Virus record (IMG/VR): IMGVR_UViG_3300046170_000391
Reading direction: 5' to 3' (one strand)
Length of the DNA stretch: 64,000 nt
Source of the DNA: a virus
A model generated the notes under the pieces. The model was given only the letters and a program-made list of their open reading frames with translations. It was not told the origin of the DNA and did not search any database. A program made the translations under genes and the position numbers. How positions within the stretch are numbered: the stretch's first letter is position 1; each line of letters opens with the position of its first letter. Shown in pieces: positions 13,735 to 58,279 of this stretch.

Positions 13735-13808
13735 TGGCAGAGGATCAAGGAATTGAACCCTGTCTTGCTGGGTTGGAGCCAGCTGTGCTACCGTAACACT
13801 TATCCTCT
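13735..13808 (-). tRNA. trnW: tRNA-Trp(CCA)
   Basis: Cloverleaf AGAGGAT/ATCCTCT, anticodon loop CTCCAAC, GGTTCAATT, encoded CCA. Confidence 0.93.
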
Positions 13809-13812
13809 ATTT

Positions 13813-13887
13813 TGGAGCGGGTAGACGGAATCGAACCGACATCCTCAGCTTGGAAGGCTGTGATAATTGCCATTATACTATACCCGC
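13813..13887 (-). tRNA. trnG: tRNA-Gly(TCC)
   Basis: GCGGGTA/TACCCGC acceptor, loop CTTCCAA, U73, CCA. Confidence 0.92.
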
Positions 13888-13888
13888 A

Positions 13889-13965
13889 TGGACGCCCTTG
13901 AGAGACTCGAACTCCCGACCTTTTGGTTCGTAGCCAAATGCTCTAATCCACTGAGCTAAAGAGCG
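13889..13965 (-). tRNA. trnR: tRNA-Arg(ACG)
   Basis: TAGCTCAGTGGATTAGAGC D-arm, loop CTACGAA, GTTCGAGTC, CCA. Confidence 0.92.
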
Positions 13966-20161: not shown

Positions 20162-21343
20162 TCATTTTTTACTTGCATAAGCAACAGCTTTATGTAAGGA
20201 ACTACTTGATAATGTAAGATATTCGTAATTTTTAAATTGCGGGAACGTTTTAAAGAAGTCTGTGCCTCTATACCCATCCAAAAGAGTATTAACATCAATA
20301 AACTCTTTCATTCTATCAGGCTTATCCTCTGAGATAAAATCATTGTATAGTTTAGTTAGTCTATCGTCATGTTTGTATAATTCTTTTAATTGTTCTTTTA
20401 ATTCTCTGGGTAAGGCTTGCGCACTAAGATACGCAGGAGCGTGTAGAGGATTAAAAGTAACACGTTTTCCTAACGTATCCATAATCTCTAATAGTCGAGG
20501 TAAAGTCCACACACTGTACTTATTTACAACACAACATATCTGAGAAACAAAAGGAAAGGCTAGTTTCAAGTTAGTTAGAAAAATTTTAGTGTCAAAACCT
20601 GTTCTACTATACTCGTTTTGTGGCCCCCATCCATCACAACTTGCTAATAAACTTACTTGAGTAAAGTGTTTCCAAAGATCTCTTAAATTATAATTTTTGT
20701 AGTGTAAATTAGATAAATTAGTCGAGTAAGAAAGAATGACATTAGTACAATTATTATCTATTAGGAATGTTAATAATTGAGCATTAGCATCGGTAATTAG
20801 TGGCTCACCTCCAGAAATATTAATTTGTTTGAGAGAGTTGTTTTGAATTAACCCTTTAATGAGTTCTAAAAAACGAGGATCTTTTTTGAAGATATTAGTA
20901 GTAAGCTCTTCATCCGGCATAAAAGTGTAAAATTTATGCTTTTTATTTTCAATCGCCCAAGTGGTTGAAAAACTAGGGTTACACATACGACATTTAAAGT
21001 TACACACATTGTTTAATCGAATGTGTATTTTTTCAATATTTTTGGCATCATTTCGATAAGTTGGATATTTTACTCTATGCGTTGGGAGATTATATTTTTC
21101 ATTTTCCCAGCAGTATTTACAAGACGGATGCTTTTGATTATTTAAAAATGCTTGTCTTAATTCTTTAAGAGCATTGCCTTTTAGATATTCTTTAATGGAA
21201 TTACCCATAGGAAAACTATTAGAAGGCATAACACAACAAGGAGTAATTTTTCCATCTTCTTCTATATGCAATTCAGTCCAAGGTCTAACACAGAAATTAC
21301 TAGGTACTGGCGGCTCTTTTGAAAAGTTTTTTGATTTCGTCAT
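20162..21343 (-). CDS. radical SAM protein with N-terminal SPASM/twitch domain
   Basis: FCVRPW..ITPCC, CKYCW, CNFKCRMC, SGGEP. Confidence 0.88.
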   Translation of the reverse strand: MTKSKNFSKEPPVPSNFCVRPWTELHIEEDGKITPCCVMPSNSFPMGNSIKEYLKGNALKELRQAFLNNQKHPSCKYCWENEKYNLPTHRVKYPTYRNDAKNIEKIHIRLNNVCNFKCRMCNPSFSTTWAIENKKHKFYTFMPDEELTTNIFKKDPRFLELIKGLIQNNSLKQINISGGEPLITDANAQLLTFLIDNNCTNVILSYSTNLSNLHYKNYNLRDLWKHFTQVSLLASCDGWGPQNEYSRTGFDTKIFLTNLKLAFPFVSQICCVVNKYSVWTLPRLLEIMDTLGKRVTFNPLHAPAYLSAQALPRELKEQLKELYKHDDRLTKLYNDFISEDKPDRMKEFIDVNTLLDGYRGTDFFKTFPQFKNYEYLTLSSSSLHKAVAYASKK

Positions 21344-27676: not shown

Positions 27677-29566
27677 CTATCTATATTGTAAATCAGTCAT
27701 CATACTGAATTTAGGGTCGTTTAAAAACCATCTTGCAAACGAATGATCTACCGTGGGTTTTGGCGGATAGAAGTTTGCTAAGTCTAGTATTTCTTCTTCG
27801 TTATAATCTTTAAAATCTGGTACGAAAGAAATCAAAGCGAGAAGCCTACGTTGAATGTCCATTTGCTGTTCAAGTGTCACAGCAGCTTCAAGCTCTTTAA
27901 CAGCTTCAATAGCTTTCATAGCTATTAGTAATTTTAGTTTTTCTCTCTTTGAATCTACGGGATCAACTTTAGGCATTGGTTTACCAGGAATATTCTCAAT
28001 ATACTCGGGTTTAGCATTCTCTAACTCAGCTAATTCTTTTTCAATATCATCTTCCTGATTTGCTCCACCCATCATAGCATCCACGGGACTTCCCTCTTCA
28101 TTAGATTCTGATTCTAACGCAGCAATCTCTGAGTCTATGTCGTCAATCATTTCAAGTTCACCAACTTCTTCATCAATATCATCTTCTACCATTTGAAAAC
28201 CATCATCAAGTTCTACGGTTTCTTGTTCTATTACTAATTCTTCTTGCAAAAAGTCATCAGTAGGAACACTATAAAACTCAGGTTCACCAGTTGTTATGTC
28301 AGTTTCCACAGTCAATACATCATCAATCAAGGGGTCTAAAACAGTAAAGTCACCATCATTACCTGATAAATCAACATATCCTGTGCAGGTGATATCATAT
28401 TGGGGATCTAATGAGCATTGTTGATCGAAGTATGCGGTATCGTATCCTTGACAGCCTGGATCAAACAAAGCATCCTCTTCACACATTGCTATGTAGTAAT
28501 CAGGGCAGCTTGGATCTGAGGTAGGATCATTAGTACACTGTTGATTGTATGATGCAGTGGCATAGCCTGAGCATCCTTGATCGTAAAGCGGATTTAAGTT
28601 ACACTGTTGAGTATAGTAAGCATTAGCATATCCCGGGCAAGCAGGGTCATGTAATGGATTAGCAGTACACTGTTGAGTTAAGTTAGCTGCGGCGTATCCA
28701 GGACAGGATGGGTCGTATAGAGGGTTTGCCGTGCATTGCTGATTAAACAATGCATTAGCATATCCTGAGCAAGACGGGTCGTGTAGAGCATTGATAGCGC
28801 AAATATCTTGACTGAATACGATATCACCAGTCATTCTTCTTACTGCAGGTCCAGCAAAGAAACTTCCTCCATTTTGATAACCTCCATCACCACCGTCTCC
28901 GCCAGTGATAGAAATATCAAAGCTTGCAATGTCTGTGCCATACCCAAGTTGACTGTTAAACCAACTTAAACCACTTTCAGTATACCACGTACCATCTGTA
29001 GCATTTGAGTCATAATTAAAAGTATCAGTTACAACAGCTTTACCATTACTGTCTTTTATAGTAAAACTAATCTCAAGGTGGTCATCACAACCCATCATCA
29101 TACGATTAGGTACTTGTCCATGACACATACCGTTTGAAGCAAATGCATCATCTGACTTTTTATACTCCCAAGAGTATGAGAATCCATCTAACTTGATTCC
29201 TGTTAATTGTTGAAGTAGTCCTGAAACAATTTGAGAGGTGTAGGTCCAATTGGCATCTCCGTTTATAGATTCGCCGTGTAATAGAATTTGGACGTTATTG
29301 CTGCCGCCATTATAGATACCAGTGCCTGCACCTTGGTTTCCGCCCCAAAAGTCTGATTGTTGGTGAGGACCGCCACCATCAAATATTTGCAGTTCAGTTT
29401 GTGCGTGAGTATTTGGATCTTCGGCACAAGCTGTACCAGTGACGAAATTAGTAGTTCCGTTAGTCGAACAATCACCTGTTGTTAAGGATTGAGCATTAGA
29501 GAAGGAGCAATAAGAGAGCGAGAGAAATGCCGCCACCAGCAATCGCTGCGTTACGTTTCTGAACAT
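27677..29566 (-). CDS. large exported protein with Cys-rich tandem repeats and acidic region
   Basis: Signal peptide; 7 x ~22-aa C..NPL.DP.C.GY repeats. Confidence 0.75.
   Translation of the reverse strand: MFRNVTQRLLVAAFLSLSYCSFSNAQSLTTGDCSTNGTTNFVTGTACAEDPNTHAQTELQIFDGGGPHQQSDFWGGNQGAGTGIYNGGSNNVQILLHGESINGDANWTYTSQIVSGLLQQLTGIKLDGFSYSWEYKKSDDAFASNGMCHGQVPNRMMMGCDDHLEISFTIKDSNGKAVVTDTFNYDSNATDGTWYTESGLSWFNSQLGYGTDIASFDISITGGDGGDGGYQNGGSFFAGPAVRRMTGDIVFSQDICAINALHDPSCSGYANALFNQQCTANPLYDPSCPGYAAANLTQQCTANPLHDPACPGYANAYYTQQCNLNPLYDQGCSGYATASYNQQCTNDPTSDPSCPDYYIAMCEEDALFDPGCQGYDTAYFDQQCSLDPQYDITCTGYVDLSGNDGDFTVLDPLIDDVLTVETDITTGEPEFYSVPTDDFLQEELVIEQETVELDDGFQMVEDDIDEEVGELEMIDDIDSEIAALESESNEEGSPVDAMMGGANQEDDIEKELAELENAKPEYIENIPGKPMPKVDPVDSKREKLKLLIAMKAIEAVKELEAAVTLEQQMDIQRRLLALISFVPDFKDYNEEEILDLANFYPPKPTVDHSFARWFLNDPKFSMMTDLQYR
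28376..28801 (-). repeat. seven degenerate ~66-bp coding repeats (CxxNPLYDPSCPGY...QQ)
   Basis: Visible in translation. Confidence 0.85.
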
Positions 29567-31441: not shown

Positions 31442-32548
31442 TTATAAAATTTGCTTTAATTCTGGAATTGCTGCAATAAAATTACGATTCCATAGAGAAT
31501 CTAATTGAGTTGTGTAATTTAAAAATTGTTGTTTTTTTGGAATGAAAATTTCTTGCTTTAAACAATCTGCTATTGGGTTAAAAAAGTTTACACTATCGTA
31601 GTAATCTAAAACACGTTTTCTATCTACTTTTTCAAGAACATAAACACTTAAAAAATCAGGATCAACTAGAAAGTTATAGTTTATACTTATCCCATAGCTT
31701 TCTGCATATTCAAATATTTTAGGTAGATTAAATATATTATATATTTGAATTGTAGTTGAAAAGTAATTAACTAAATCAAGGCAAGTTTCTAGATTGTGCT
31801 GAAATTTTTTTGCTGAAAAACCAGTTCTAATATATTCTCCAACAGCCCCCACACCGTCAAAACTAGCATAAACATCTACATCTTTAAATCTTTTCAAGTG
31901 ATCTATATGATCAACTCCTTTATAAGAGAGTACAGAAAGATTTGTTGTCATAACTAGATAAATTGACTCATATAAATTATTCTGTTCAATCAAATTTAAG
32001 AGATAAAGATATTCATCACAAATAAACGGTTCTCCACCCATCACAGTAAGAGTAATTTTTTGTTTTTTAGCTTGAGATATGATCCAGTCAATTTTATCAA
32101 ATTGGGGGTTAGAATGAGTTGAAGCCATACCTCTTATAGAACAAGCTTTAGGATCGTTCGCCCAAGCAGAACTATCTTCTGGATTACACATCATACATTT
32201 AAAGTTACACTTGTTTGATAGTGATATAGAGATTCTATTTAAATTTTTAGAAAAATTTTTATCTAACTGTCTAACACTATTTATTTTTGCGTCTTCTGCT
32301 TTCCAGCAAGCTGAACAGGAAGTAGGTTTACCTCCAATTAAAAACTCTTTTCGCAACGACTTAAGCTCCTCTGACTGCAAGTAGGAGTCAAAGGAGCCAT
32401 CGTAGAAGTTATAATTAACACAGCAAGGTCCAATAGTATTAAAATGGCTATATACTTCATTCCAAGGCTTAAAACAAAAATATTTAGGTAAGTCTTTTGG
32501 TAGTAATTTTTTCGTCACTAAATGTCTCTTCTTGTTTGATAAAGTCAT
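31442..32548 (-). CDS. radical SAM protein with SPASM/twitch domain
   Basis: FCFKPW..GPCC, CSACW, CNFKCMMC, MGGEP. Confidence 0.88.
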   Translation of the reverse strand: MTLSNKKRHLVTKKLLPKDLPKYFCFKPWNEVYSHFNTIGPCCVNYNFYDGSFDSYLQSEELKSLRKEFLIGGKPTSCSACWKAEDAKINSVRQLDKNFSKNLNRISISLSNKCNFKCMMCNPEDSSAWANDPKACSIRGMASTHSNPQFDKIDWIISQAKKQKITLTVMGGEPFICDEYLYLLNLIEQNNLYESIYLVMTTNLSVLSYKGVDHIDHLKRFKDVDVYASFDGVGAVGEYIRTGFSAKKFQHNLETCLDLVNYFSTTIQIYNIFNLPKIFEYAESYGISINYNFLVDPDFLSVYVLEKVDRKRVLDYYDSVNFFNPIADCLKQEIFIPKKQQFLNYTTQLDSLWNRNFIAAIPELKQIL

Positions 32549-33560
32549 AAAAACTTTGAACAGCTAGTTCTTTATGTTTGGCTTCAATATCAAAATCTGC
32601 ATATTCAAGCATCGGTACATGATTTGCCATTAGATGCTCATCCCAGTAAGTTTCTGAATGAGCATTAGGTTTCATCCAGTAATCTCGATTATCGGGGTGG
32701 AAGGATTGTGACTTGTGGAACAACGGGCGTACGCCTCTCCATGACTTGACAGCTTCCACGAAGTAGTCACTTGTGTGCGTGATATGATCCACGTCTCGAA
32801 TTTTCCGATTGACCGTTTTCTCGCCAATTTTAACTCTCTCAGTCTCAACCATTCGATGGCAGGCATAGTGGTGTGTGTCGAGGGTGCAGCGGATAGGGAT
32901 CCGTTGGGCAAGTTCAAGTGTGTGGTGGATGTCATATCCATTGGGTTTATCTTCATTTTCGACGGAGAGGCAACCCTGGGCGTAGTCTGAAAGGTAGGGG
33001 AAGTGTGTGGCAAAGCGTTTAATACCATCTTCGTGTTTTCCTCCATATAGTCCTTGTAAGTGGATGTTCATTGAAAATTCTTCAGCAGGTAAGCTCATCA
33101 ATGAACCGTATAGAGCGTGATACTCTAAGTCTTCAATAGATTTAGTTACTACGTCTGGTTTATTAGAAGCGAGAACTGTATACTGACCAGGATGCACAGA
33201 AAGACGAACAGAGTGTCGTTTTGCGGCCTCACCAGCTTGAGCCAGTATAGTTTCAATCTCCTCCCAAATTTCTTTATACCAGTCTTGAGTAAATTCAAGA
33301 GTGTAGCAAGGGAACATCTCAGAAGAGATCCGAAAGCTTCTAAGATTAAAAGGTTGAGTTGGGAAATAAGTAGTAAGAGCGTCGAGAAGTTTTTTACAGT
33401 TCTCAATAGCTTTTGTTTGAACTTTTTCTTTTCCGCCCTCTTTAAGAGCATAGGTCTTGGTAGTGGTTCCAAAGTTATACCTTTTAGCAAGTGTTTTATC
33501 ATGCCATTGGCAGCATTGCGAAATGCGCCAATCAGTTTGTTTTTGATTGAAATATTCCAT
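32484..33560 (-). CDS. uvsE: UV damage endonuclease
   Basis: FRISSEMFP, RLSVHPGQYTVLAS, VENED, LDTHH, AHS, IEAKHKE. Confidence 0.9.
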   Translation of the reverse strand: MEYFNQKQTDWRISQCCQWHDKTLAKRYNFGTTTKTYALKEGGKEKVQTKAIENCKKLLDALTTYFPTQPFNLRSFRISSEMFPCYTLEFTQDWYKEIWEEIETILAQAGEAAKRHSVRLSVHPGQYTVLASNKPDVVTKSIEDLEYHALYGSLMSLPAEEFSMNIHLQGLYGGKHEDGIKRFATHFPYLSDYAQGCLSVENEDKPNGYDIHHTLELAQRIPIRCTLDTHHYACHRMVETERVKIGEKTVNRKIRDVDHITHTSDYFVEAVKSWRGVRPLFHKSQSFHPDNRDYWMKPNAHSETYWDEHLMANHVPMLEYADFDIEAKHKELAVQSFYDFIKQEETFSDEKITTKRLT

Positions 33561-36574: not shown

Positions 36575-37534
36575 TTAAAGTCCGTTAGGTACGATTACAT
36601 AATGAATAGATAAGACTACTCCAACAGAAGCAGCAAGTCCGACCATCATTTTAAGAAAGTCTTTTCCTATTAGTGGAAATACAACTTTGAACTTTTCCTT
36701 GCCTGTCATAGTTGCCATAGCAAGTTCACGTCCACATAGTAACCCTACAAATACCCAGGTGGTTGACATGGGTATATCATTTAGCTCTTTAAAAAAGAAT
36801 AAGATAACCCAATATACGGCATCAATAATTGTAGCGGAGCGAACATAACGAGTATTATGCTTCTCTAAAACAATATTTTGAATTTTACCTCCACCTTCTC
36901 TAAACATGAACCAAAGTCCACCTACAAAGATAATAGAAATTGCAAACATCATATCCGCAGGAATTTGTCTTGGTAAAAAGACTGCAATATTTGCGATATC
37001 ATGGGATAACCAAGTCCACCAAAGAAAACCTGTTGTTACCCATTGTCCGATTCTCCACCAACGCTTATGTTCTTCTTTAACTGGTTTAGATTCGTCTAAA
37101 ATTTTAGTTACACCAATCCATATAGCATAGGCAGCAACAGCAGCTACAGCATATCCCATCATGGATTTCATTAACATTTTTTCTAGTACAAAAGTAGAAG
37201 CAAAGGCTGAAAGTACTAAAAAAGATGTGCTAACAGGCACACCGATCCGCGTTAGTAGAAGTAGAAGTCCAGGGGCTAACGCGTGATACCACTGAATTTC
37301 TTGGAAGGGGATTTTATTCAGTCTTCCATAGGAGATGTCTCCTCCATATGTAAACCACCCGTACCATAATGCCCATAACAAAACAGACGAAGCAGCAAGC
37401 CACATCGTCCTCCAATGAAATCGTTCGTTGTTAGAAGCAATCCAAGTACCAAGAGTTTGTACTGAGTCATTTGCTATTACTGAATACGCAGCAAATAAAA
37501 AACCAACACCCATCCAAAGAGTTAAAAGTTCCAT
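36575..37534 (-). CDS. PiT-like inorganic phosphate permease
   Basis: Multi-TM; ANDS and HDIAN signature-like motifs, duplicated PVSTS/PMSTT; Pho box upstream. Confidence 0.65.
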   Translation of the reverse strand: MELLTLWMGVGFLFAAYSVIANDSVQTLGTWIASNNERFHWRTMWLAASSVLLWALWYGWFTYGGDISYGRLNKIPFQEIQWYHALAPGLLLLLTRIGVPVSTSFLVLSAFASTFVLEKMLMKSMMGYAVAAVAAYAIWIGVTKILDESKPVKEEHKRWWRIGQWVTTGFLWWTWLSHDIANIAVFLPRQIPADMMFAISIIFVGGLWFMFREGGGKIQNIVLEKHNTRYVRSATIIDAVYWVILFFFKELNDIPMSTTWVFVGLLCGRELAMATMTGKEKFKVVFPLIGKDFLKMMVGLAASVGVVLSIHYVIVPNGL

Positions 37535-37555
37535 TTTAATTTCTCCTTAGAAAAG

Positions 37556-37581
37556 TAATAAGAGGCTATAGCCTCTTATTA
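37556..37581. terminator. 26-bp perfect palindrome (terminator or 5' stabilising hairpin)
   Basis: TAATAAGAGGCTATAGCCTCTTATTA. Confidence 0.6.
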
Positions 37582-37583
37582 TT

Positions 37584-37617
37584 AGTATATTATAAAATTG
37601 TTACAGTTTTGTGAAAT
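37584..37617 (-). promoter_or_regulatory. Pho box promoter
   Basis: ATTTCACAAAACTGTAAC (consensus CTGTCAY-AWAW-CTGTMAY) exactly 10 nt before -10 TATACT. Confidence 0.7.
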
Positions 37618-37632
37618 TTTAAAAATTTAAAT

Positions 37633-37717
37633 TGGCTGTGGAGGATGGAGTCGAACCATCACGCCTTTCGGCACACGAGAAACAGTCGTGCGTGTCTACC
37701 AGTTTCACCACCCCACA
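37633..37717 (-). tRNA. atypical type II tRNA, anticodon GTT (Asn) on a Leu-like body
   Basis: TGTGGGG TG GTGAAACTGGTAGACAC G CACGA CTGTTTC TCGTG T GCCGAAAGGC GT GATGG TTCGACT CCATC CTCCACA G CCA. Confidence 0.88.
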
Positions 37718-37722
37718 ATAAA

Positions 37723-38553
37723 TTATGCTGCGAGCTGAAGCTGGGTATCAAGAGCCGCAATCATGCGAGTCATACCAATACCTCCGCCCACACGTGGGAA
37801 GAAGTCAAACTTTAAAAACTCTTCAAGTTCTGCCTCTACGCGTTCTTTACCAAACAGTTCAAACAGTAGGTTAGCGTAGGCTCCATCAGTAATTGTGTGG
37901 AAAGTGTTGCGCATCATATCAATATCGCATGAGCGTTCTGCTGAACCGATAGTTTCCATACCCCCAAGAATAACATCAATCTTTTTAGAGGTTAGTCCGT
38001 TTTCATAGCGGCTCATGTTCCAAAATGGTGAAGTAAACTCAGGGAAGTCCGTAATCATAGTAGTACTAAAATCATTAAACATTGCGATTTCATGCTCTGC
38101 CTCAAGTTCTCCGTCAACCTTATAATGCTTTTGCCATGCTTCGTAGGTCTTCTCAATCGGGCGATCAAAACCCAGATAATCTACAAGTTCATATTCCATC
38201 TTTTTAAGGTCTACAATATCACCTGGCATTTCAAATTCAAACATAGGGAAGATGATATCATGCCTACCAGGGATAGCATTAGGTTCTTGTCTGTACGAAG
38301 TTGAGACACAAAAAAAGCCCTTTTCATTGGGCTGAGAGAGTAACTCATGTTCTAACCACATCTGACCGGTTTGTGGAAGAGGCCAAACTTGACCAGCATA
38401 GTTATATGTAGCAACGTTGAAAGGATCTTCGCAAGCTGCAAGGATAGAAAGACGGTTCTGTGTGTGAACTTCTTTAAAACCTTTATCTAAAAAAAATGAC
38501 CTTAAAAGGCCAACGGTGTGAGTAAATTTTGTAGGGGAAATTAGTTGAGTCAT
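37723..38553 (-). CDS. class IIb aaRS catalytic-core-only protein (AsnRS/AspRS-like; AS-AR/EpmA-type architecture)
   Basis: Motif 1 RSFFLDKGFKEVHT, motif 2 YRQE...RH..FPMFEFE, motif 3 GGGIGMTR; no N-terminal OB fold; start revised to MTQLISP (AAGG SD). Confidence 0.85.
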   Translation of the reverse strand: MTQLISPTKFTHTVGLLRSFFLDKGFKEVHTQNRLSILAACEDPFNVATYNYAGQVWPLPQTGQMWLEHELLSQPNEKGFFCVSTSYRQEPNAIPGRHDIIFPMFEFEMPGDIVDLKKMEYELVDYLGFDRPIEKTYEAWQKHYKVDGELEAEHEIAMFNDFSTTMITDFPEFTSPFWNMSRYENGLTSKKIDVILGGMETIGSAERSCDIDMMRNTFHTITDGAYANLLFELFGKERVEAELEEFLKFDFFPRVGGGIGMTRMIAALDTQLQLAA

Positions 38554-38615
38554 TATTATACCTTTCTTGTATATAAAAAGACGCGCAGATTTAAAACCTG
38601 CGCTCAAATTAACCA

Positions 38616-38644
38616 ATTATATAAGAAGTATAGTAAGTATGCAA
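38616..38644 (-). promoter_or_regulatory. sigma70 promoter TTGCAT-N17-TATAAT for the aaRS-like/tRNA unit
   Basis: Exact spacing; 5'UTR hairpin GCGCAGG..TCTGCGC. Confidence 0.75.
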
Positions 38645-44083: not shown

Positions 44084-44741
44084 CTCTCCTGTTCTTTAAC
44101 AAAGGTAAAAAGGGAACAGCACTTTTTTCAAAAATAATCGGATCATCGTTTTCAACAGTCATAATAATTGCTATATCTTGAATTCCTGTACCATACATTT
44201 CATTATGTGCAACAGCGTATGCACAGCCTTGAATATAGTAGTCCGTAATTTGCTTTTGATTCTTTTTCTTTTTTGATGTTTTAAAATCAATAATTGTAGG
44301 CTTGCCTTTCCATATACCTACCATGTCTGTTCTTCCTGCATAGCGGTATTTATTAGACCATAGTACTTGTTCTTGTCCCCAAACTTCTTCAACACCTGTT
44401 TCAGTAGCTCTAATAAGATTAGCGGTCATAGATCTAACATCCAACTGTAATGTCTTGATTTCTTCCCAGACGTCTTCTCCGTTGAAGTGTCTTTCAGCAA
44501 GCTCATGAACAAGCGTGCCTCTATCCGTAGCAAGTTTAGAAATGCGTGCAGCTTCTTCTTCACCAACTTTATCCTTCCATCTTTGTAACCAAGTTTGATC
44601 TGATGTCTTACCTAGTATAGTTGTAATAGATGGGTAGGACCCATCAGGGGTATGATAAGTTCTACCAGTAGGTAATGTGTCTGTGTCTACTTCAGTTAGA
44701 TACTTGAACTTCTCTTTTGTAATCTTCCACTGTGTTAACAA
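44046..44741 (-). CDS. PD-(D/E)XK exonuclease
   Basis: YPSITTIL, RGTLVH, E..AGRTD, IIDFKTS, Q..AYA. Confidence 0.88.
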   Translation of the reverse strand: MLTQWKITKEKFKYLTEVDTDTLPTGRTYHTPDGSYPSITTILGKTSDQTWLQRWKDKVGEEEAARISKLATDRGTLVHELAERHFNGEDVWEEIKTLQLDVRSMTANLIRATETGVEEVWGQEQVLWSNKYRYAGRTDMVGIWKGKPTIIDFKTSKKKKNQKQITDYYIQGCAYAVAHNEMYGTGIQDIAIIMTVENDDPIIFEKSAVPFLPLLKNRRDEFDKLQRNTST

Positions 44742-46059
44742 TAGGTTTTCCTTTTGCGTTTAAACTCGTGTTTATCAGTATGGGGTATCCATATTGTCTG
44801 GTTATCTCTAGTACTTTCCAAATATAAGCATTTTTATTGCGACTAACTAGTTGAAGACGAGCTGATTTATCATGAGTAGTAAAATTACCTCCAATAATAT
44901 CAGCAACAAATAGCATATCATGACTAGGCTGATAAATCTTAAACCACGTATCAGCTTCTTCTTCTTGACAAATAGGGGCATAAGGCCTCCAGGAATCTGT
45001 ATCACGTTTCTTAATTTTGTTTAATTTTTTAATATTATCATTTGTAGGAATACAGAGCAAGCTACGATTACCTAATGCACGAGGCCCAAACTCAGCCTTT
45101 CCCTGTATAATAGGAACAATTTCTCCTTTTAGTAATCTTTCCGCCGCCTCATCTGTAGTGACATCATTAGTATCGGTTATCCCTAAATAAGCACTCTCCC
45201 ATAAAGGTCTACAAATTAATGCCGCTGCTCCTAAAGCACACCCTGCATCTCCTGCTGCAGGTTGTATCGCTACTGAATCAAATCCTGAGTGTTTTTTTAT
45301 TTTAGTATTAGCGACACAGTTTAATGCTACTCCTCCTGCATATGCTAAGTTTTTCATACCAGTTTCTTGTTGGAGCCACGTAGCCAACGCAAGAAGAACA
45401 TTTTCAGTAACTCTTTGAACTGAAGCAGCAACATCCCAATCTAAAATACCGTAACCAACACCACGTTCAAGGTTATGCAATAGAGTGTAATCTCCATCCG
45501 CATTCCAATCTATTATTTTTTGATTTATCCAAGGTAACCACTTCGGCTCTCCATGAGCAGCTGCTGCCATTACTTGAGACTCATCACAAAGAGGTTTAAG
45601 TCCCAAGAAACGAGTAGCACTAGAGTAAAATAAACCAATAGAGTTTGGATACATAAACCTTTTAATCCATTCAATTTTGCCATTTTGATAAACTCCTAAA
45701 GATGTTGAATATTTACCTCCTACGGTATCTACCACCATAACGGCACACTCATACCAATCAGTCAAAAGGACAGAGCTCATAGCATGTGCTTCATGATGAT
45801 CTACTAAAACAGGTTGAGCTTTAGTAATCTTTTTAATTTCTGATTTAAAATCGTTGTAAGTAGACTCTTCATAAAAAGCAGCAAACTCAAAGTCTTCATA
45901 TACATCTTGCAACCATTTTACTGTATTATGAGGGAAGGATTTATCATATTTTTTACGAGTAAAACGTTCCTCATGAGAAGCACCAACTATTGAAGTATCT
46001 TTTATAAATGCTGCAGCGCTATCGTGGTGATAACAGCTGACTCCTAGTATGTTCATCAA
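44692..46059 (-). CDS. carbamoyltransferase (NodU/CmcH family)
   Basis: HDSAAA, EERFTR, HHEAHA, GGVALN, EFGPRALGNRS, NTSLN. Confidence 0.92.
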   Translation of the reverse strand: MMNILGVSCYHHDSAAAFIKDTSIVGASHEERFTRKKYDKSFPHNTVKWLQDVYEDFEFAAFYEESTYNDFKSEIKKITKAQPVLVDHHEAHAMSSVLLTDWYECAVMVVDTVGGKYSTSLGVYQNGKIEWIKRFMYPNSIGLFYSSATRFLGLKPLCDESQVMAAAAHGEPKWLPWINQKIIDWNADGDYTLLHNLERGVGYGILDWDVAASVQRVTENVLLALATWLQQETGMKNLAYAGGVALNCVANTKIKKHSGFDSVAIQPAAGDAGCALGAAALICRPLWESAYLGITDTNDVTTDEAAERLLKGEIVPIIQGKAEFGPRALGNRSLLCIPTNDNIKKLNKIKKRDTDSWRPYAPICQEEEADTWFKIYQPSHDMLFVADIIGGNFTTHDKSARLQLVSRNKNAYIWKVLEITRQYGYPILINTSLNAKGKPIVNTVEDYKREVQVSN

Positions 46060-51813: not shown

Positions 51814-52866
51814 GTGCCTTTATCAATCCCCAGTATTCCCCATAAATCAAGAATGAAGGCTCATAAACTTCAATACTTAAGAGCCATATCTGATTCTATG
51901 GATTATCCTTTTCAATCTGAAGATGGAAGAGATCCTTCTGCCTCACATCAAGAATTAACAGAAACTTGTGTTGAATATACTGACATACCTTACTGGCAGT
52001 TTACAAACTGTTGTACTGACTCACTACAAATCGCTTTTTCAATGTTGTGCAAAGTAGGAGATACAGTCATCGTACCTGCTTATGGTTGGAGAGCGGTAAC
52101 AAATGCTCCACAGTTTGTAGGTTTAAATGTTATATATTGTGATATTGATGAGACAGGTAACGTTAGTATTTCAGAGTTGCATCGTCTAATATATGAAAAT
52201 CAACCTGCTGCAATACTAATAATTCACAATTTCGGCACGGTAGTAGACGTATCAGAATTAACAGGTATTTGTGAAAAGTACGGTGTTAAAATTATTGAAG
52301 ACGCTGCCCAAGCATTTGTAATGAAAGAACCCTATGACTATAAAATTGGTTCTTGCGCTGACATAGTATGTTTTTCTTTTGATTTTACTAAATCTCCTGG
52401 TACCTTAGGTGCTGGAGGGGCAATAGCTACTTATAATCCAGATCATTTTACAAAAATTAAATCAATTTGTTCTCATATCACTAATGAGTTGGGAATTGGG
52501 ACAAAATCGTATTTAGATACTACTGCAGCAGCAGTGCTCAATTGTGATATAAAACTTATAGAGCAAATGCAGTATAGACAGCGTAGAGTCGAAGTTGCTA
52601 CTTACTATATAAACAAACTTCCTTATGAAACTCTGAGCGGAAAAAATTATATCTTTCATCGTTTTATAATTTTACCTGATAAAAGTGAAAAACAAGATCT
52701 AATTAACAAACTAAAGTCACAAAAAATTCTAGCTAAACCTGTATATAAACCTAATACAGATGCTTGTACTTATGCAAATAGATTCTACGAGAGTGCAATT
52801 GAGCTCCCTTGTCATCAGTTTATTGATGTAAATGACTTAAATTCAAGAATTGAAAAAATATTATGA
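51814..52866 (+). CDS. DegT-family sugar aminotransferase
   Basis: GDTVIVPAY, IIEDAAQA, FSFDFTK, ELPCH. Confidence 0.88.
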   Translation: MPLSIPSIPHKSRMKAHKLQYLRAISDSMDYPFQSEDGRDPSASHQELTETCVEYTDIPYWQFTNCCTDSLQIAFSMLCKVGDTVIVPAYGWRAVTNAPQFVGLNVIYCDIDETGNVSISELHRLIYENQPAAILIIHNFGTVVDVSELTGICEKYGVKIIEDAAQAFVMKEPYDYKIGSCADIVCFSFDFTKSPGTLGAGGAIATYNPDHFTKIKSICSHITNELGIGTKSYLDTTAAAVLNCDIKLIEQMQYRQRRVEVATYYINKLPYETLSGKNYIFHRFIILPDKSEKQDLINKLKSQKILAKPVYKPNTDACTYANRFYESAIELPCHQFIDVNDLNSRIEKIL

Positions 52867-53795
52867 AGATACTAATAACAGGCGGAATGGGTTTTATTGG
52901 AGCACACTTAGTAGCAGAATTAGGACGCACTCATGACATAGATATTTTAGACGGTTTTGATGAAAACTACGTAGGCTACAAATATATACATAGAGGGACA
53001 AAAGGTTTACAAGAAACTAATGAGATTGAAAAACGTCATAGAAAACTAAATCTAAAGTATAGACTTGATTTAGTAAAAGGTAAATTCAATCAATACTATA
53101 GAAAATGGAGTTTTGAAGATATTCCAAGAGCAAATTATGATTTAGTACTTAACTTTGGGGCTTTATCAGAAGCTATCTTATCTCAACATTTTCCAAAATT
53201 TACTTCAGATTCTATAGTGCAAGGATTAAATCTAATTAAATTGTACCTTCCTAAGACACCTGTCTTACATATAAGTAGTAGCATGGTTTACGGCACTTGG
53301 GAAGGAGTAATTGACGAGCAGTACTCTTTAGGAGCTGTGGACCATTACGGGGACAGTAAAATAAAGGCAGAAACTATCTGCGGAGAGAATGACGTAATTT
53401 TGCGACCCATACATGTTTATGGTATGGGAGATGGTAAATTCTCAATCTGGATGAATATAGAAAGACAGATTGCAGCTGCAAAACCTGTTATGGTTGAGAG
53501 GGCAGGATGTATATACATAGACGATTTCGTTTTAGCAATCAAAAATATTTTAGACAGATGGCGTCCTGGCATTTATAATATTTCATACACATTCACTAGA
53601 AATGCTGAAGCATTAACTAATACTTATCCAGAAACTTTTGACGTTCAATATAAGTCAGGACCCACGGGTAAACCTAGAGGGCTGCTAGATAATAGCAAAC
53701 TAATAAATACATTTAATGTGAACTTTAAGTTTACAAATTATATAGATACTGTGAGAGACTATTATAGAACATATGAAAATTTTTGTAAGAAATAA
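52863..53795 (+). CDS. NAD-dependent epimerase/dehydratase
   Basis: GGMGFIG, SSSMVYG, YGDSK. Confidence 0.85.
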   Translation: MKILITGGMGFIGAHLVAELGRTHDIDILDGFDENYVGYKYIHRGTKGLQETNEIEKRHRKLNLKYRLDLVKGKFNQYYRKWSFEDIPRANYDLVLNFGALSEAILSQHFPKFTSDSIVQGLNLIKLYLPKTPVLHISSSMVYGTWEGVIDEQYSLGAVDHYGDSKIKAETICGENDVILRPIHVYGMGDGKFSIWMNIERQIAAAKPVMVERAGCIYIDDFVLAIKNILDRWRPGIYNISYTFTRNAEALTNTYPETFDVQYKSGPTGKPRGLLDNSKLINTFNVNFKFTNYIDTVRDYYRTYENFCKK

Positions 53796-54102
53796 TGATG
53801 TTGGAAAAGCACTTCGCATCTTAAAGAAAAAATTACACAATGAAGGTGTAATGAAAGAAGTAAGAGATAGACGTCATTTTATTTCAAAAGGCGAGCAAGA
53901 TCGTTTAGCTAAAAAAGCAGGGGTTAAACGTTGGCATAAAAAACGAGAAGAATTAGAGAAACAATTTATTCGTGAAGAACGAAATATGCTACGTAACAGC
54001 AGGAAAAATAAAAGAAATGTTCAAAGATCTAACAAAAGTTCAAATCAACAGCGAACGCAACGCTACTCTAGCGATAAGAATAAACGATCATCACGTTCAT
54101 AA
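53773..54102 (+). CDS. rpsU: ribosomal protein bS21 with basic C-terminal extension
   Basis: VRNNDVGKALRILKKKL..EG..KE.RDRRHFISKGE. Confidence 0.85.
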   Translation: MKIFVRNNDVGKALRILKKKLHNEGVMKEVRDRRHFISKGEQDRLAKKAGVKRWHKKREELEKQFIREERNMLRNSRKNKRNVQRSNKSSNQQRTQRYSSDKNKRSSRS

Positions 54103-54355
54103 TCTTGTGCTAAGTTTAGACAATTTTGCTTTCATTCTAAATAAGAATGTCAATTCATGGAAAGGTTTAATTCATAATAAAACATGGGAGTTCAGAAAAC
54201 TTTCTGATCGTGTTAAATTATATGATCAAAGCTATGAATATCATTACCGTTTCTCCCTTGAAGAATGGGAAACTATAAGACAACAATTTGCAGCAGCTTT
54301 ACTTGAAAGTAATCTTGCTAAGTAGTTATTTACTTTTCTATAATACCTTATAAAT

Positions 54356-54616
54356 ATGGAGGTTTATATGAAAGCATACAAAGGTACGTTTAAAAAGAAA
54401 AATGGTGAATCACGTGATATGGTTTTTGCTAGACTATATGATTTACCGCAAAAGTTTCTTGACGAAAAAGTACAAGGAGCAGGTTCTGAGCAAAAATATC
54501 CAGAAGGTATGGAACTCGTTTGGGATCTAGAAGCAGATAACTTTAGAATTTTTAATTGGAAATCTGTAGATAACGACCCGAAAGAATTTGATATTGACGA
54601 AACTCTTTTTAGATAA
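54356..54616 (+). CDS. hypothetical SH3/WYL-like domain protein
   Basis: FKKKNGESRDM ... VWDLEADNFRIF; GGAGG SD. Confidence 0.55.
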   Translation: MEVYMKAYKGTFKKKNGESRDMVFARLYDLPQKFLDEKVQGAGSEQKYPEGMELVWDLEADNFRIFNWKSVDNDPKEFDIDETLFR

Positions 54617-54864
54617 TGAACCTTTTATTCTTGTAGAAACAGAAATTGTAAATTTTAAAGAGCTTAAAGCAGGTAATATTAACTTAATGTACTACATTAT
54701 TGAAATACATAATACAGAAAATGATGAAATAGGAGTAGTGACAGAAGAGATAGATGGTGAACAGATTATCAAAAAATTTGATACCTGGTCTAAGGCAAAG
54801 GCTATGTCTGGAACACTAAATAGAGATACCCCTGAAAATCTCTCTACTCACATAGTAACCATTA

Positions 54865-55239
54865 ATGAAACTGCTACAAAAGATAAAGAAGTGGATAACG
54901 ATTGACCATTGTGTTGATCTTGTCGTTGATATATTGTTAATTGTATGGGAAGTTATCAGTAGTCCAATACTTATAGCTATGCGTCTTATAAGGCACTTTG
55001 TAGGTGAGTGGATAACAGATAAAATTAAAGCAGGAGTGCGTAAAATAGCACACTGGTTTGAGCATAAAAGAGAGTATAGATTAAAAAACGGATATGGAAT
55101 ATTTCGTACATATTGGTGGTTAATTATTTCAAGTCCTATAATTATATTTATCAGTATTTTTATTGTAGCTATACTGTCAGGATTACACGAAGGTTTAAAT
55201 ATAGCTTTCGAAGAAATTAGTGCTTCGTTTGAGGAGTAG
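54865..55239 (+). CDS. hypothetical membrane protein
   Basis: Two hydrophobic segments. Confidence 0.55.
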   Translation: MKLLQKIKKWITIDHCVDLVVDILLIVWEVISSPILIAMRLIRHFVGEWITDKIKAGVRKIAHWFEHKREYRLKNGYGIFRTYWWLIISSPIIIFISIFIVAILSGLHEGLNIAFEEISASFEE

Positions 55240-55245
55240 TATAAT

Positions 55246-55714
55246 AGACGGACTGGACTCGGGGGCAGTACCCGACGGCTCCACCATAAACACAGGAATA
55301 ACACATGAAAGAATATATGTTAATAATCAGCATGTGGGGAAGTGATGGAAGCACAGAGCATTACATTGGTCAGATGGTTTTACAACAACCAATGAGTAAA
55401 TCTCAGTGTGAGTGGATGATTGAGGATGAACAGTGGGGTGCAAGTTTTGATAATGAGTATTACTTCTTTGCTAGACACTGTATGCCGAAAGATTGTGCTG
55501 GAAAAGATTCCTGTGACTAAACACTATTGGTGTGTTTATGATGGGGCCGAAATAGGATCGACAGACGTAATAAAAACAATGCCGAGAAGCAGGTGCGCAA
55601 GCGACCTCAACCGCAAGAAAACAAACAATTGCAAATGATAATTTCGCAATCGAGGACTACCGCATAGCGGCATAGTCTCACGGGGTATGGCTCCACCTAG
55701 CAACAGAACGGGCC
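55246..55714 (+). ncRNA. ssrA: permuted two-piece tmRNA (acceptor piece ~55250-55286; coding piece 55543-~55714)
   Basis: T-arm TCGGG-GGCAGTA-CCCGA and CGGCTCC-A-CCA pair with GGGGCCG (G3.U70); GGATCGAC; tag ANDNFAIEDYRIAA* at 55631-55675; CACCTAGCAACAGAA 3' element. Confidence 0.92.
55305..55520 (+). CDS. 71-aa protein inside the tmRNA intervening segment
   Basis: AGGA SD, full ORF, resembles small Cys proteins at 12720 and 13532; flanked by TAAACAC direct repeats. Confidence 0.75.
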   Translation: MKEYMLIISMWGSDGSTEHYIGQMVLQQPMSKSQCEWMIEDEQWGASFDNEYYFFARHCMPKDCAGKDSCD

Positions 55715-55737
55715 TTTACAACTCTTATGAGGATTAA

Positions 55738-56880
55738 ATGTTTAATTTTAATACAACTCCACGTTTAGTAATCGGCGCAAATAGATTACAGTTCTTAGGC
55801 ACACTTCTTTCCGACCTTGGAATCAAAAACCCTTTAATAGTGACAGGTCCTAATCTTGCAAAATCTAAAATCATAACTGAGACACAAAAATGGTCTTGGA
55901 CTGATAATGTATTCTGTGATTTAGTACAGGATCCAACGACTCAGAATGTGTTAGACTGTGTTGAATATGGAATAAGTAAAGACGTAGATGGAGTTATTGG
56001 TATCGGGGGTGGATCATCTCTTGATGTAGCAAAAGTTGCTTCTGTGTTATTAAAACAGGAAACATCTTTAGAAAACATTTGGGGTGTAGACAATGTTTAT
56101 AGTTCAAGACTACCTTTAATTCTTATACCTACCACCTCGGGGTCAGGATCAGAAGTTACCCCAGTTTCAATTATTACAACAGGTGAGACAACAAAAATGG
56201 GAATTGTTTCTCACAGAATCATTCCAGATGCAGCAATTCTTGACCCTCTTCTTACAGTTTCTTGTAACCCTCAACTAACTGCATATAGCGCAATAGATGC
56301 GATGGTTCATGCTATCGAATCATACACTTCTATAAATCCCAATAACAATCCTTACTCAAAAATGCTTGCACTTGAAGCTTGTCGCTGGTTAGGTAAATCA
56401 ACAAAAACTGCCATCTTAGAGCCAAGTAATATCGAAGCAAGAGCTAATGTACAATATGGATCTATGTTGGCCGGGCAGGCATTTGGTAATTCGCCAGTAG
56501 CAGCAGTTCATGCATTAGCCTACCCACTAGGTGGGTACTTTAAACTGCCACATGGTTTAACAAATACTTTGGTTCTTCCTGGTGTTTTAGAGTATAATCA
56601 AGAAAATACAGACTATTCAACTCTTGCTACTGCTTTATTTCCTCATGATGAAGGAGAAATATACTACTATAAAGGTGATGTTGTTGAAGTAATGTGCAGA
56701 AATATCAAAGAATTAGCAGAGTTAGCAGGAATCGAAACTCGAATGAGTGATTATGGAATCAGTGCAGAGCATATTCCAATGTTAGCAGAAGAGGCAATGA
56801 AACAATCTAGGCTCTTGGTAAATAATCCGAGAGAAATTACAGAAGAAGTTGCAAAAGAAATTTACTGGGAAGTTCTATAA
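55738..56880 (+). CDS. iron-containing alcohol dehydrogenase
   Basis: GIGGGSSLDVAK, PTTSGSGSE, DAMVHAIE, HALAY, HG. Confidence 0.93.
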   Translation: MFNFNTTPRLVIGANRLQFLGTLLSDLGIKNPLIVTGPNLAKSKIITETQKWSWTDNVFCDLVQDPTTQNVLDCVEYGISKDVDGVIGIGGGSSLDVAKVASVLLKQETSLENIWGVDNVYSSRLPLILIPTTSGSGSEVTPVSIITTGETTKMGIVSHRIIPDAAILDPLLTVSCNPQLTAYSAIDAMVHAIESYTSINPNNNPYSKMLALEACRWLGKSTKTAILEPSNIEARANVQYGSMLAGQAFGNSPVAAVHALAYPLGGYFKLPHGLTNTLVLPGVLEYNQENTDYSTLATALFPHDEGEIYYYKGDVVEVMCRNIKELAELAGIETRMSDYGISAEHIPMLAEEAMKQSRLLVNNPREITEEVAKEIYWEVL

Positions 56881-57509
56881 TGTATAAAACTTATATTCTA
56901 GGGAATGGCGGATACGCTCAAGAATGCTTTGAACAATTTGTACTAGGCAGAGTTATAGAAGATTTCGGGGGATTTATTATCCTAAAAGAAGGTAAAGCAG
57001 TTCTTATTAACGATGAAGGTATAAATAATTTTACTTACCCTAAAGAATCTGCATTTATGCTAGGGACTGGGCACCGTAAGTGGCGTAAAGTATTTTTAGA
57101 TCATTTATTTGGTTATTATGAACAGAATATTAATCATTTTCCAAATATGATAGCTAATGAAGCACACTTATCACAAACTTCTACTCTAGGTATAGGTAAT
57201 GTACTTAATTGCTTTGCTATGACAAATGCTAATGCTAATATCGGAGATTTTAATCTTTTAAACTGTTATGCATCAGTTCATCATGACGTAACGATGGGAA
57301 GTCACAATATATTTACAACGTATGCTACCGTGCTAGGGTATTGTACAGTAGGAGATGATAACTGGTTTGGTAATGCAGTTACAGTAACATCAAAAACAAA
57401 TATCGGTAATGATAATACACTTAGTTCTGGCGAACATCTTTTTGAAGATATGAGCACTCGTCAATTCTTTAAACACGGTATTGTTACAGAGAAACCTATA
57501 AAACAATGA
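56880..57509 (+). CDS. NeuD/PglD-like hexapeptide acetyltransferase
   Basis: GNGGYA, LbetaH repeats, VHHD. Confidence 0.82.
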   Translation: MYKTYILGNGGYAQECFEQFVLGRVIEDFGGFIILKEGKAVLINDEGINNFTYPKESAFMLGTGHRKWRKVFLDHLFGYYEQNINHFPNMIANEAHLSQTSTLGIGNVLNCFAMTNANANIGDFNLLNCYASVHHDVTMGSHNIFTTYATVLGYCTVGDDNWFGNAVTVTSKTNIGNDNTLSSGEHLFEDMSTRQFFKHGIVTEKPIKQ

Positions 57510-58276
57510 TTATTTTTTTTAGAAGCTGTGAAGCAAACTTAAAAGCTGGATCTCTTGGAGACGAAGTTACGGGTGATGGTATTCGCTGGAATGGTAAACA
57601 TAAATTAGAAATTATTCGTAAATGTTATCTTTCAATTCAATCTAGCTTAGATGAGCGTGATTTAATCGTAGTAATTGATGATAGAACGACTAAAGATACC
57701 CTTAACTGGATGAGAGACAACACTAAAGCCCAATTTAGGGTACACCCCATTACCCCCTTACCTGAACTAAGAGCAAAAGATCCTTATCCTAATTATCATC
57801 CTGTTATGGCTAATTCATGTCCAGAAATCATGGAACATTTAGTGAGTGTTTCAGAAGAAAATCCTGATGAAATTATATACATCTGTGAGGACGATTATCT
57901 TCATCTACCTCAAGCAATACTTGCAATGAAAGCTTTATTTGGTCAAGGATATAGTGGGTTTTATGCCCCACAAGATTATCCTGATAGATATACCTTAGAC
58001 TCTAGTAGGGTATGTGAAGTACATGTGGGGCCTTATGGGCATCTAAGATCAATTCCAAGCTCAACACTTACTATCGCAGCAAAGGGCACTACTTGGCTTC
58101 AGTATAAGTATGAAATACTCAGAGCAGGAGCTTTTGCAGATGATACATGGACTTGGAAAGCTTTTAAACAAGTTGGCTGTCTATGTCCCCTACCAGGCCA
58201 CTCTACTCACCTACAAGAAGGGTGTATTAGCCCTTGTATAAACTGGGAACAAGTATATGAAGGCATTAGTTTATAA
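57506..58276 (+). CDS. GT-A fold glycosyltransferase-like protein
   Basis: IDD, YICEDDYLH, DYPDRY, STH. Confidence 0.65.
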   Translation: MIIFFRSCEANLKAGSLGDEVTGDGIRWNGKHKLEIIRKCYLSIQSSLDERDLIVVIDDRTTKDTLNWMRDNTKAQFRVHPITPLPELRAKDPYPNYHPVMANSCPEIMEHLVSVSEENPDEIIYICEDDYLHLPQAILAMKALFGQGYSGFYAPQDYPDRYTLDSSRVCEVHVGPYGHLRSIPSSTLTIAAKGTTWLQYKYEILRAGAFADDTWTWKAFKQVGCLCPLPGHSTHLQEGCISPCINWEQVYEGISL

Positions 58277-58279
58277 TAT

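Follow-up and report, generated by a model that had tools for sequence, protein, structure and literature searches.

Background

AS-AR (3P8T) and AsnA (11AS) are core-only class IIb paralogs of aminoacyl-tRNA synthetases which adenylate the carboxylate of asparagine or aspartate (Asx) without a tRNA, and EpmA (GenX/PoxA, 3A5Y) is a core without an anticodon domain that has a non-canonical acceptor, lysylating elongation factor P (EF-P). GluQRS (YadB), a core-only paralog of GluRS, glutamylates queuosine-34 of tRNA-Asp. In tRNA-dependent amino acid synthesis (non-discriminating AspRS (ND-AspRS) with GatCAB, SepRS/SepCysS, tRNA-Sec) the tRNA serves as a scaffold, and PylRS-tRNAPyl and the Streptomyces pair ProRSx-tRNAProA each consist of an enzyme and an unusual tRNA that are adjacent and co-inherited; the PylRS core ignores the anticodon. 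Here we analyse a 64,000-nucleotide (nt) stretch of viral DNA, IMG/VR record IMGVR_UViG_3300046170_000391 (the whole of which we refer to as the window), in which positions 37,556 to 38,644 hold the gene for an enzyme resembling asparaginyl-tRNA synthetase (AsnRS), termed X, followed by a tRNA gene with the anticodon GUU, termed tRNA(GUU).

X has the fold of the AsnRS catalytic domain (Brugia malayi 2XTI/2XGT, human 8TC8, P. horikoshii 1X54) and keeps its motif-2 Arg/Glu, RH pair, QxxQxxLE, E..GS.R and motif-3 Arg, but it lacks the N-terminal oligonucleotide-binding (OB) fold anticodon-binding domain and its context is one of pyrimidine genes or a dedicated tRNA. AS-AR and AsnA share the core-only architecture; both are however structurally farther from X than AsnRS, and X is tied to pyrD, pyrE and pyrF and to a tRNA. 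EpmA is derived from LysRS whereas X is of AsnRS type, and we saw no EF-P or EpmB context around X. Phage tRNA(GUU) keeps the U1-A72 determinant of the GatCAB pathway, yet no amidotransferase gene adjoins X, which has a synthetase-type core and a putative role in tRNA-dependent synthesis. Unlike the tRNAs of the PylRS and ProRSx pairs, tRNA(GUU) keeps a host-type identity, and the X family is mostly found without a dedicated tRNA, in metabolic operons.

Rather than an ordinary tRNA charger, X is probably a metabolic enzyme of a new kind with a tRNA as its partner. Our favoured reading, to which we give a probability of roughly 40 %, is that X would be an ATP-dependent Asx ligase which feeds dihydroorotate synthesis and has a dedicated tRNA partner.

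An enzyme and a tRNA inherited together

The unit in the window comprises the following elements.

37723-38553, minus strand: gene for X, a class IIb (AsnRS-like) core of 276 amino acids (aa) without an anticodon domain; stop codon at 37723-37725
37633-37717, minus strand: tRNA-Asn(GUU), 85 nt, type II, found by ARAGORN; Rfam RF00005 score 43.8 bits (gathering score 29)
37556-37581, both strands: 26-bp palindrome, a bidirectional terminator-like hairpin (11-13 bp, T-rich tails) closing the unit

The gap between the stop codon of X and base 1 of the tRNA is 5 nt, and the start of X (MTQ...) is conserved in all homologs. An earlier reading of the locus made from its letters alone (the sequence-only reading) had placed the 276-aa core, the 5-nt gap, the 85-nt GUU tRNA and the 26-bp palindrome correctly. 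Its distance of about 24 kb from the ordinary tRNA cluster is also close to what we measured, the remaining tRNAs of the window (Trp, Gly and Arg, by ARAGORN) lying at 13735-13965, some 23.7 kb from tRNA(GUU). The search for terminator-like sites returned five, against 0.7 in shuffled sequence.

The module is already annotated, yet its function is absent from the literature. Prochlorococcus phages P-SSM7, P-SSM2 and P-SSM5 carry homologs of X with 65-67 % identity, labelled 'tRNA ligase', each directly followed by a tRNA-Asn(GUU) of 85-88 nt; the P-SSM2 gene is PSSM2_198. X has been present in model cyanophage genomes since 2005. In Sullivan et al. 2010 it appears solely as gene cluster 194, 'tRNA ligase' (PMC3037559), and apart from that table entry we found no study of X or tRNA(GUU). 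Public names of other homologs go no further than 'aspartyl/asparaginyl-tRNA synthetase'. X is nevertheless among the commoner unexplained genes of large marine phages, with at least 8000 clusters at 90 % identity in marine metagenomes and at least 598 loci in IMG/VR. The remark in the sequence-only reading that many alphaproteobacteria make Asn-tRNA through ND-AspRS and GatCAB has no basis here, as the cultured relatives infect Prochlorococcus.

To 80 IMG/VR loci we added cultured phages (86 loci in all) and located the tRNA by script: it lay immediately 3′ of the X stop codon in 81 of the 86, mostly after a gap of 5-8 nt. The scan of homologs for a downstream GUU tRNA that had been proposed from the sequence bore out this linkage when sampling of phage-clade X was widened, 93 loci having the tRNA and three lacking it (L085, L126 and L127), with one further locus cut off. 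The reverse test used a pattern taken from the tRNA alone (D-arm to anticodon), which retrieved 118 IMG/VR loci; X lay directly upstream on the same strand in all 112 testable loci, the remaining six having less than 120 nt of upstream sequence. The linkage of X and tRNA is near-obligate in both directions and far beyond chance. In P-SSM7 the module is situated between gp23 and gp3 and in P-SSM2 within a sugar-modification region; the neighbourhoods in these two phages and in the window are unrelated, and the module therefore moves as a unit.

Other arrangements occur as well. In L127 (NZDU01000035.1, 4817-4900) the tRNA 3′ of a 64 %-identical X has shrunk to a hairpin, TCCGGGG-TC-CCCCGGA-GCCA, consisting of both strands of the acceptor stem followed by G-CCA; this is either the remnant of an internal deletion or a functional minihelix. 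In the bacterial metagenome-assembled genome (MAG) C24_maxbin.066 an ordinary 73-nt tRNA-Asn(GUU) lies about 230 nt after a 45 %-identical X (L195, 5021-5093). This is the only cellular locus with a tRNA-Asn near X, and the pairing, for which we roughly estimate a chance probability of 0.03, hints at a wider tRNA connection. The 735-kb huge phage LR756501.1 (W03) has an X gene at 88649-89473 without a tRNA; about 3 kb away, at 85657-85839 on the minus strand, a 672-aa frame gives a weak phosphoribosyltransferase-domain match.

Fold and active site of X

The class II D/K/N core PF00152 covers residues 14-268 of X with an E-value of 1.2e-14 (29-292 of the 308 profile positions); Pfam found no further domain in the protein. 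An AlphaFold (AF2) model built from 43 diverse homologs likewise shows a single domain, with a predicted local distance difference test score (pLDDT) of 94.9, in agreement with the anticodon-domain-less enzyme originally described. With the NCBIfam models for AsnRS, non-discriminating AspRS and asparagine synthetase A, X scores 20-26 bits where 340-390 are needed (22.7 bits against 342.6 for asnS, TIGR00457; 20.3 against 389 for asparagine synthetase A, NF005055 and related). A single-sequence search of the PDB gave only marginal AspRS matches (E ~2e-3) and a family profile was required, the best match of which was AsnRS (E 9e-14).

The top matches in an exhaustive structural search were the AsnRS catalytic domains 2XTI (Z 27.2), 8TC8 (26.8) and 1X54 (26.1), with a root-mean-square deviation of 2.0-2.5 over 245-250 residues and about 20 % sequence identity; Foldseek agrees. 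Lower matches comprised yeast AspRS (24.1), GenX/EpmA (23.8), AS-AR (23.2), LysRS (22.3) and AsnA (20.4). Alignment to Brugia AsnRS shows that X retains the motif-2 residues R88 and E90 (YRQE), R97-H98, F102, E106, E108, E200, R207, the motif-3 residue R263, QxxQxxLE (L67-E68) and E..GS.R. By class IIb signatures, we take the combination of QxxQxxLE and E..GS.R to mark an AsnRS-type pocket and not the K-Q of AspRS, and F102 is the adenine-stacking Phe. These residues give X the appearance of an active, adenylate-forming enzyme whose pocket is of Asn type. The motif RHDIIF, read previously as a sign of altered substrate contacts, is present; its I-for-E exchange however lies after the motif-2 loop at a non-catalytic position which is hydrophobic throughout the family, and R88 and E90 are intact. 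Invariant residues of the family's own include C41, W66, W178, N179 and R254, and most members are 260-300 aa long.

Homologs of X and pyrimidine genes

An exhaustive, profile-free homolog search yielded 683 representative clusters, almost all core-only. Two are fusions to enzymes of pyrimidine synthesis:

L088, 4001-5986: PyrD-X fusion P0123, 661 aa, 56 % identical to the window X, beside a UMP-synthase-like gene
L092, 544-2310: X-PyrF fusion P0140, 588 aa, beside pyrE and pyrD

A scan of viral contigs returned no match to the P0140 piece. The range of homologs at 45-60 % identity is wide, and the contigs that carry them often measure from hundreds of kb up to 3.2 Mb. Such homologs are found in giant-virus MAGs, the Bacteroidota (Weeksellaceae/Moheibacter, Chitinophagales and Aureispira), Myxococcota, Alphaproteobacteria, Chlamydiae, Dependentiae, several phyla of the candidate phyla radiation (CPR) and DPANN archaea. 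In 19 loci, drawn from six lineages or more, X adjoins pyrD, pyrE or pyrF; these lineages include Bacteroidota, Myxococcota, Chlamydiae, Alphaproteobacteria and giant-virus MAGs. There is no such neighbourhood around X in the window, P-SSM2 or P-SSM7. Nor did the neighbours of X in Weeksellaceae, Chlamydia and Woesearchaeota, loci which were not compared with each other, include an obvious functional partner; they comprise an upstream phosphoenolpyruvate (PEP) carboxykinase (L162), gldB, NAD synthase, a LigT-like phosphoesterase, an ERCC4 nuclease and YjeF.

Genomes that carry X

We determined the complement of pyrimidine and asparagine genes in 26 X-bearing genomes, some of them MAGs that may be incomplete, with 14 control genomes for pyrB:

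pyrB (TIGR00670): 0/26 X-bearing genomes over the cut-off; 14/14 controls pass
pyrC (TIGR00857): 0/26 over the cut-off; eight with full-length amidohydrolases below it
pyrC, E. coli type (TIGR00856): 0/26
pyrD: present in 17/26

pyrB was absent from all 27 X-bearing genomes tested when two from a sample of Weeksellaceae are included. Of the 61 genomes in that sample 48 have pyrB, and both X genomes are among the 13 that do not; among the Weeksellaceae without X the proportion is 48/59. This distribution argues for X standing in for PyrB and, in genomes of the Weeksellaceae type, for PyrC.

Genes of asparagine metabolism accompany X in all combinations: AsnRS is found in approximately 16-18, AsnB in 13 and GatB in 17 of the 26 genomes. 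X as a missing Asn-tRNA amidotransferase was rejected, gatB being present in most X genomes. In two small X genomes without AsnRS and AsnB, gatB is broken into frame-shifted or stop-containing pieces (G005:C3:82188-83607 and G007:C2:361518-362942), which may reflect long-read assembly error or decay of the amidotransferase.

X could instead be an ammonia-dependent asparagine synthetase like AS-AR or AsnA, which together with an extra tRNA-Asn would give an AT-rich phage genome more Asn-tRNA. There is precedent for core-only AsnRS paralogs making asparagine; X resembles AS-AR and AsnA in structure (Z 23.2 to 3p8t and 20.4 to 11as), gives weak matches to NCBIfam asparagine synthetase A, and in 9/26 genomes occurs with AsnRS and no AsnB. 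However, X occurs irrespective of AsnRS, AsnB and GatB in these genomes, some of which may be incomplete, with X lacking an AsnRS in at least 8/26 and lying alongside AsnB in 13/26, which argues against X being simply the asparagine synthetase of the cell. The family score is 20 bits where 389 is needed, and neither the fusions to pyrD, pyrE and pyrF genes and the universal lack of pyrB nor the abnormal body and U37 of the tRNA, described below, would be explained. We regard this alternative as decidedly unlikely.

Phage and cellular X compared

A maximum-likelihood tree of X contains one large, well-supported tRNA-linked clade (34 members with the tRNA, three without and one cut off) and a second, small one (L111-L116), both nested among pyr-linked and cellular clades. 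Some 85 positions, the active-site residues included, are the same in all four sets compared, namely both tRNA clades (main and second), the pyr-linked sequences and the remainder. The main phage clade is marked only by some seven conservative substitutions, which the second tRNA-linked clade does not have. Since the active site does not vary between phage and pyr-linked enzymes the same chemistry is most likely throughout the family, and on these alignments it is probably common to all groups of X. The phage enzyme is thus not visibly retooled: either the whole family works with the acceptor end of tRNA-Asn, or none of it does. That pyr-linked homologs with the same active-site residues occur where pyrB and pyrC are missing points to small-molecule chemistry over plain charging.

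The chimeric tRNA(GUU)

We compared 56 distinct homologous tRNA sequences, retrieved with a search pattern that demanded GUU and that almost every eligible locus fitted. GUU is present in all, U1-A72 and G73 in 56/56, encoded CCA in 55/56 and U33 in 55/56, while position 37 is U in 42, A in nine and C in five. All 17 pairs of the acceptor, anticodon and T stems are kept with compensatory changes across the set; acceptor positions 2-4 show three kinds of pair, and every position of the anticodon stem three to five. The window copy has U1-A72, G73, encoded CCA, U37 and a 13-nt variable arm (GCC-GAAA-GGC hairpin). GUU and G73 are the elements read by AsnRS and ND-AspRS. A modified purine, N6-threonylcarbamoyladenosine (t6A), is normal at position 37 of ANN-decoding tRNAs, and a pyrimidine there is a poor fit for the decoding of AAY codons. 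The second tRNA-linked clade, at about 50 % protein identity, has the same tRNA body with GUU, U37 and G73.

The nearest other tRNA is the phages' own tRNA-Leu(UAG), which shares 72 % identity and a D-arm differing by one D-loop base; type I tRNA-Asn is only 56-59 % identical, and the window copy has neither its variable loop of 4-5 nt nor its purine (t6A) at 37, a position that is U or C in 47/56 relatives. Leucine identity is missing, with G73 in place of A73 and GUU in place of a Leu anticodon. tRNA(GUU) is, by its sequence, a phage tRNA-Leu body that bears the tRNA-Asn identity set at both ends, and its description as chimeric was well founded. U1-A72 is a positive determinant for bacterial GatCAB (PMC2330236). 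As the full tRNA-Asn identity set is kept, tRNA(GUU) does not look orthogonal. The sequence-only reading had supposed a co-evolved, possibly orthogonal pair; co-inheritance is upheld by the linkage tests, whereas orthogonality is not, the Asn identity being of host type.

It had also taken the long variable arm for a recognition handle. We reject this on the variability of both its length and its sequence: the arm is either 11-17 nt (3-5 bp hairpin) or 28-37 nt (9-12 bp hairpin) with no conserved sequence, while GUU, G73 and the 1:72 pair do not change. The invariance of the anticodon beside variable positions 32, 37 and 38 indicates that something reads it, and this is not the anticodon domain that X is missing. 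ARAGORN mislabels the long-arm variants (L013, L021, L025, L033, L065, L080 and others), placing the anticodon at odd positions and calling them, at lengths near 100 nt, tRNA-Glu(ctc), Asp(atc), Ile(aat), Asn(att) or '???'; this tRNA will therefore be overlooked or wrongly named by automatic annotation.

The pattern of conservation bears on a purely structural account of the linkage, in which the tRNA would serve the X transcript as a 3′ processing, stability or terminator element, or joint capture of both genes was simply never followed by their separation. The tiny gap and the terminator after the tRNA suit such an account, and the MAG locus with X followed by an ordinary tRNA-Asn offers a possible source of joint capture. 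It does not, however, predict GUU, G73, the 1:72 pair and CCA staying invariant while stems covary and the arm ranges from 11 to 37 nt, nor the persistence of the arrangement in two clades and across proteins that have diverged by about 50 %, and we consider this account very unlikely.

By analogy with GluQRS, X might add an Asx residue to a base in the anticodon loop of tRNA(GUU). GUU tRNAs normally bear queuosine at position 34, the precedent is a synthetase core without an anticodon domain, and the anticodon is invariant next to positions 32, 37 and 38 that vary. Against this, the pyr-linked homologs with an identical active site favour a small-molecule role, which makes such a modification highly improbable.

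The main rival to our reading is a private charging pair, in which X would charge tRNA(GUU) with Asn or Asp through its acceptor end (G73 and a weak 1:72 pair), the tRNA would decode AAY and the phage supply of Asn-tRNA would be independent of the host. The two-way obligate linkage, the retention of aminoacylation-type catalytic residues and a full-length motif-2 loop, the nearest fold being AsnRS and an invariant GUU suited to decoding all favour such a pair, as does L127, where only an acceptor-stem minihelix with G73-CCA is retained. The homologs that share the active site are however genes or fusions of pyr operons, in genomes where no special tRNA accompanies a normal AsnRS or GatCAB; 47/56 variants have U or C at position 37, which is poor for AAY decoding, where t6A37 is the norm; and no residue signature of X is specific to the tRNA-linked clades. 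We consider a private pair possible, if doubtful.

Possible function of X and tRNA(GUU)

If X is an Asx ligase feeding dihydroorotate synthesis, it would activate an Asn- or Asp-type substrate with ATP to give a product leading to dihydroorotate. One possible reaction is Asn + CO2 + ATP -> dihydroorotate + AMP + PPi, a proposal of our own whose rationale is that dihydroorotate equals Asn + CO2 - H2O, so that only ATP would be needed. tRNA(GUU) would be charged by anticodon-reading Asx enzymes of the host (AsnRS, or non-discriminating AspRS followed by GatCAB), and the charged tRNA would act as the dedicated Asx carrier or partner of X and not mainly as a decoder. The phage would gain a pyrimidine route free of feedback control. 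We infer that pyrimidine-entry chemistry is common to the X family; the exact reaction of X and the part of tRNA(GUU) as a substrate carrier are speculative.

Several observations weigh against this interpretation. P-SSM2 and P-SSM7 encode no PyrD or PyrF, which would leave the phage dependent on the host for later steps. No PyrD was seen in 9/26 X genomes (MAGs, which may be incomplete), and some X genomes hold PyrC-like genes or genes like aspartate or ornithine carbamoyltransferase (ATC/OTC) that fall below the cut-offs. Clade L111-L116 has A1-U72 and no encoded CCA, so that the GatCAB argument is not general, and the control genome of Synechococcus elongatus has AsnRS. There is no residue signature common to both tRNA-linked clades and nothing in X marks tRNA binding. 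A substrate borne on a tRNA would moreover be energetically costly.

A stricter version, which we think unlikely, makes X a tRNA-dependent pyrimidine-ring enzyme converting Asn or Asp borne on tRNA-Asn, with ATP and a one-carbon (C1) unit, to dihydroorotate. Bacteria would use their own tRNA-Asn and phages the captive Leu-bodied tRNA(GUU), bypassing the feedback-controlled steps of carbamoyl-phosphate synthetase (CPSase), aspartate transcarbamoylase (ATCase) and dihydroorotase. If true, this would give nucleotide biosynthesis its first tRNA-dependent step, and viruses a novel means of taking over pyrimidine supply.

Were the family to replace PyrB and PyrC, as our favoured Asx ligase reading supposes, it would solve a missing-enzyme problem in Bacteroidota, Chlamydiae, CPR, DPANN and giant viruses and provide a further case in which a synthetase became an enzyme of metabolism. 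For the phage module there are two possibilities, a natural minimal synthetase-tRNA pair with recognition confined to the acceptor end, which genetic-code engineering could exploit, or a new non-translational use of a tRNA. P-SSM2, P-SSM7 and their Prochlorococcus hosts are cultured, so both are directly testable.

Other features of the window and of related loci

Upstream of X the window contains two further elements.

38583-38603, minus strand: GC-rich 9-bp hairpin followed by a T run, in the X leader, after the promoter-like site and before the start codon
38616-38644, minus strand: sigma-70-like promoter match TTGCAT-N17-TATAAT, read by the tool as TTTGCA-18-TATAAT, 10/12

The hairpin may terminate the DegT-type gene that lies upstream, or act as a leader/attenuator element. 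The promoter sequence is present where it had been reported, but the call is weak because promoter-like sites occur at chance frequency (five observed against 4.3 expected from shuffles) and the terminator-like hairpin lies between the site and the start codon. The module is flanked by a DegT-type aminotransferase on one side and a membrane protein on the other. At 37532-37595 on the minus strand the Rfam cis-regulatory motif 'freshwater-2' gives a weak match (24.6 bits, E 0.35; gathering score 49.9), probably by chance. The match takes in both the palindrome and the ribosome-binding site of the membrane-protein gene downstream.

At 44692-46059 on the minus strand, some 6 kb from X, the window encodes a NodU/CmcH-type carbamoyltransferase (PF02543 and PF16861) with only 28-35 % identity to cyanophage versions; carbamoyltransferases are listed in the gene tables of X-bearing cyanophages too, for example P-SSM2. 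Genes for transfer-messenger RNA (tmRNA), identified by ARAGORN with tags ending in ..LAA or ..QAA, lie near the module on several contigs of marine phages, in L037 (3933-4278) and in L058, L080 and L081 (~1097-1483). A 629-aa open reading frame at 27677-29566 on the minus strand of the window has no Pfam family and no tblastn match among 50,697 phage records. Radical SAM/SPASM genes, a UvdE UV endonuclease and a sugar-modification cluster occupy 20162-21343, 31442-32548, 32484-33560 and 51814-61231, the cluster including a second DegT aminotransferase, an Fe-alcohol dehydrogenase and an NAD epimerase/dehydratase. This gene content is similar to that of the lipopolysaccharide (LPS)-type islands of large cyanophages.

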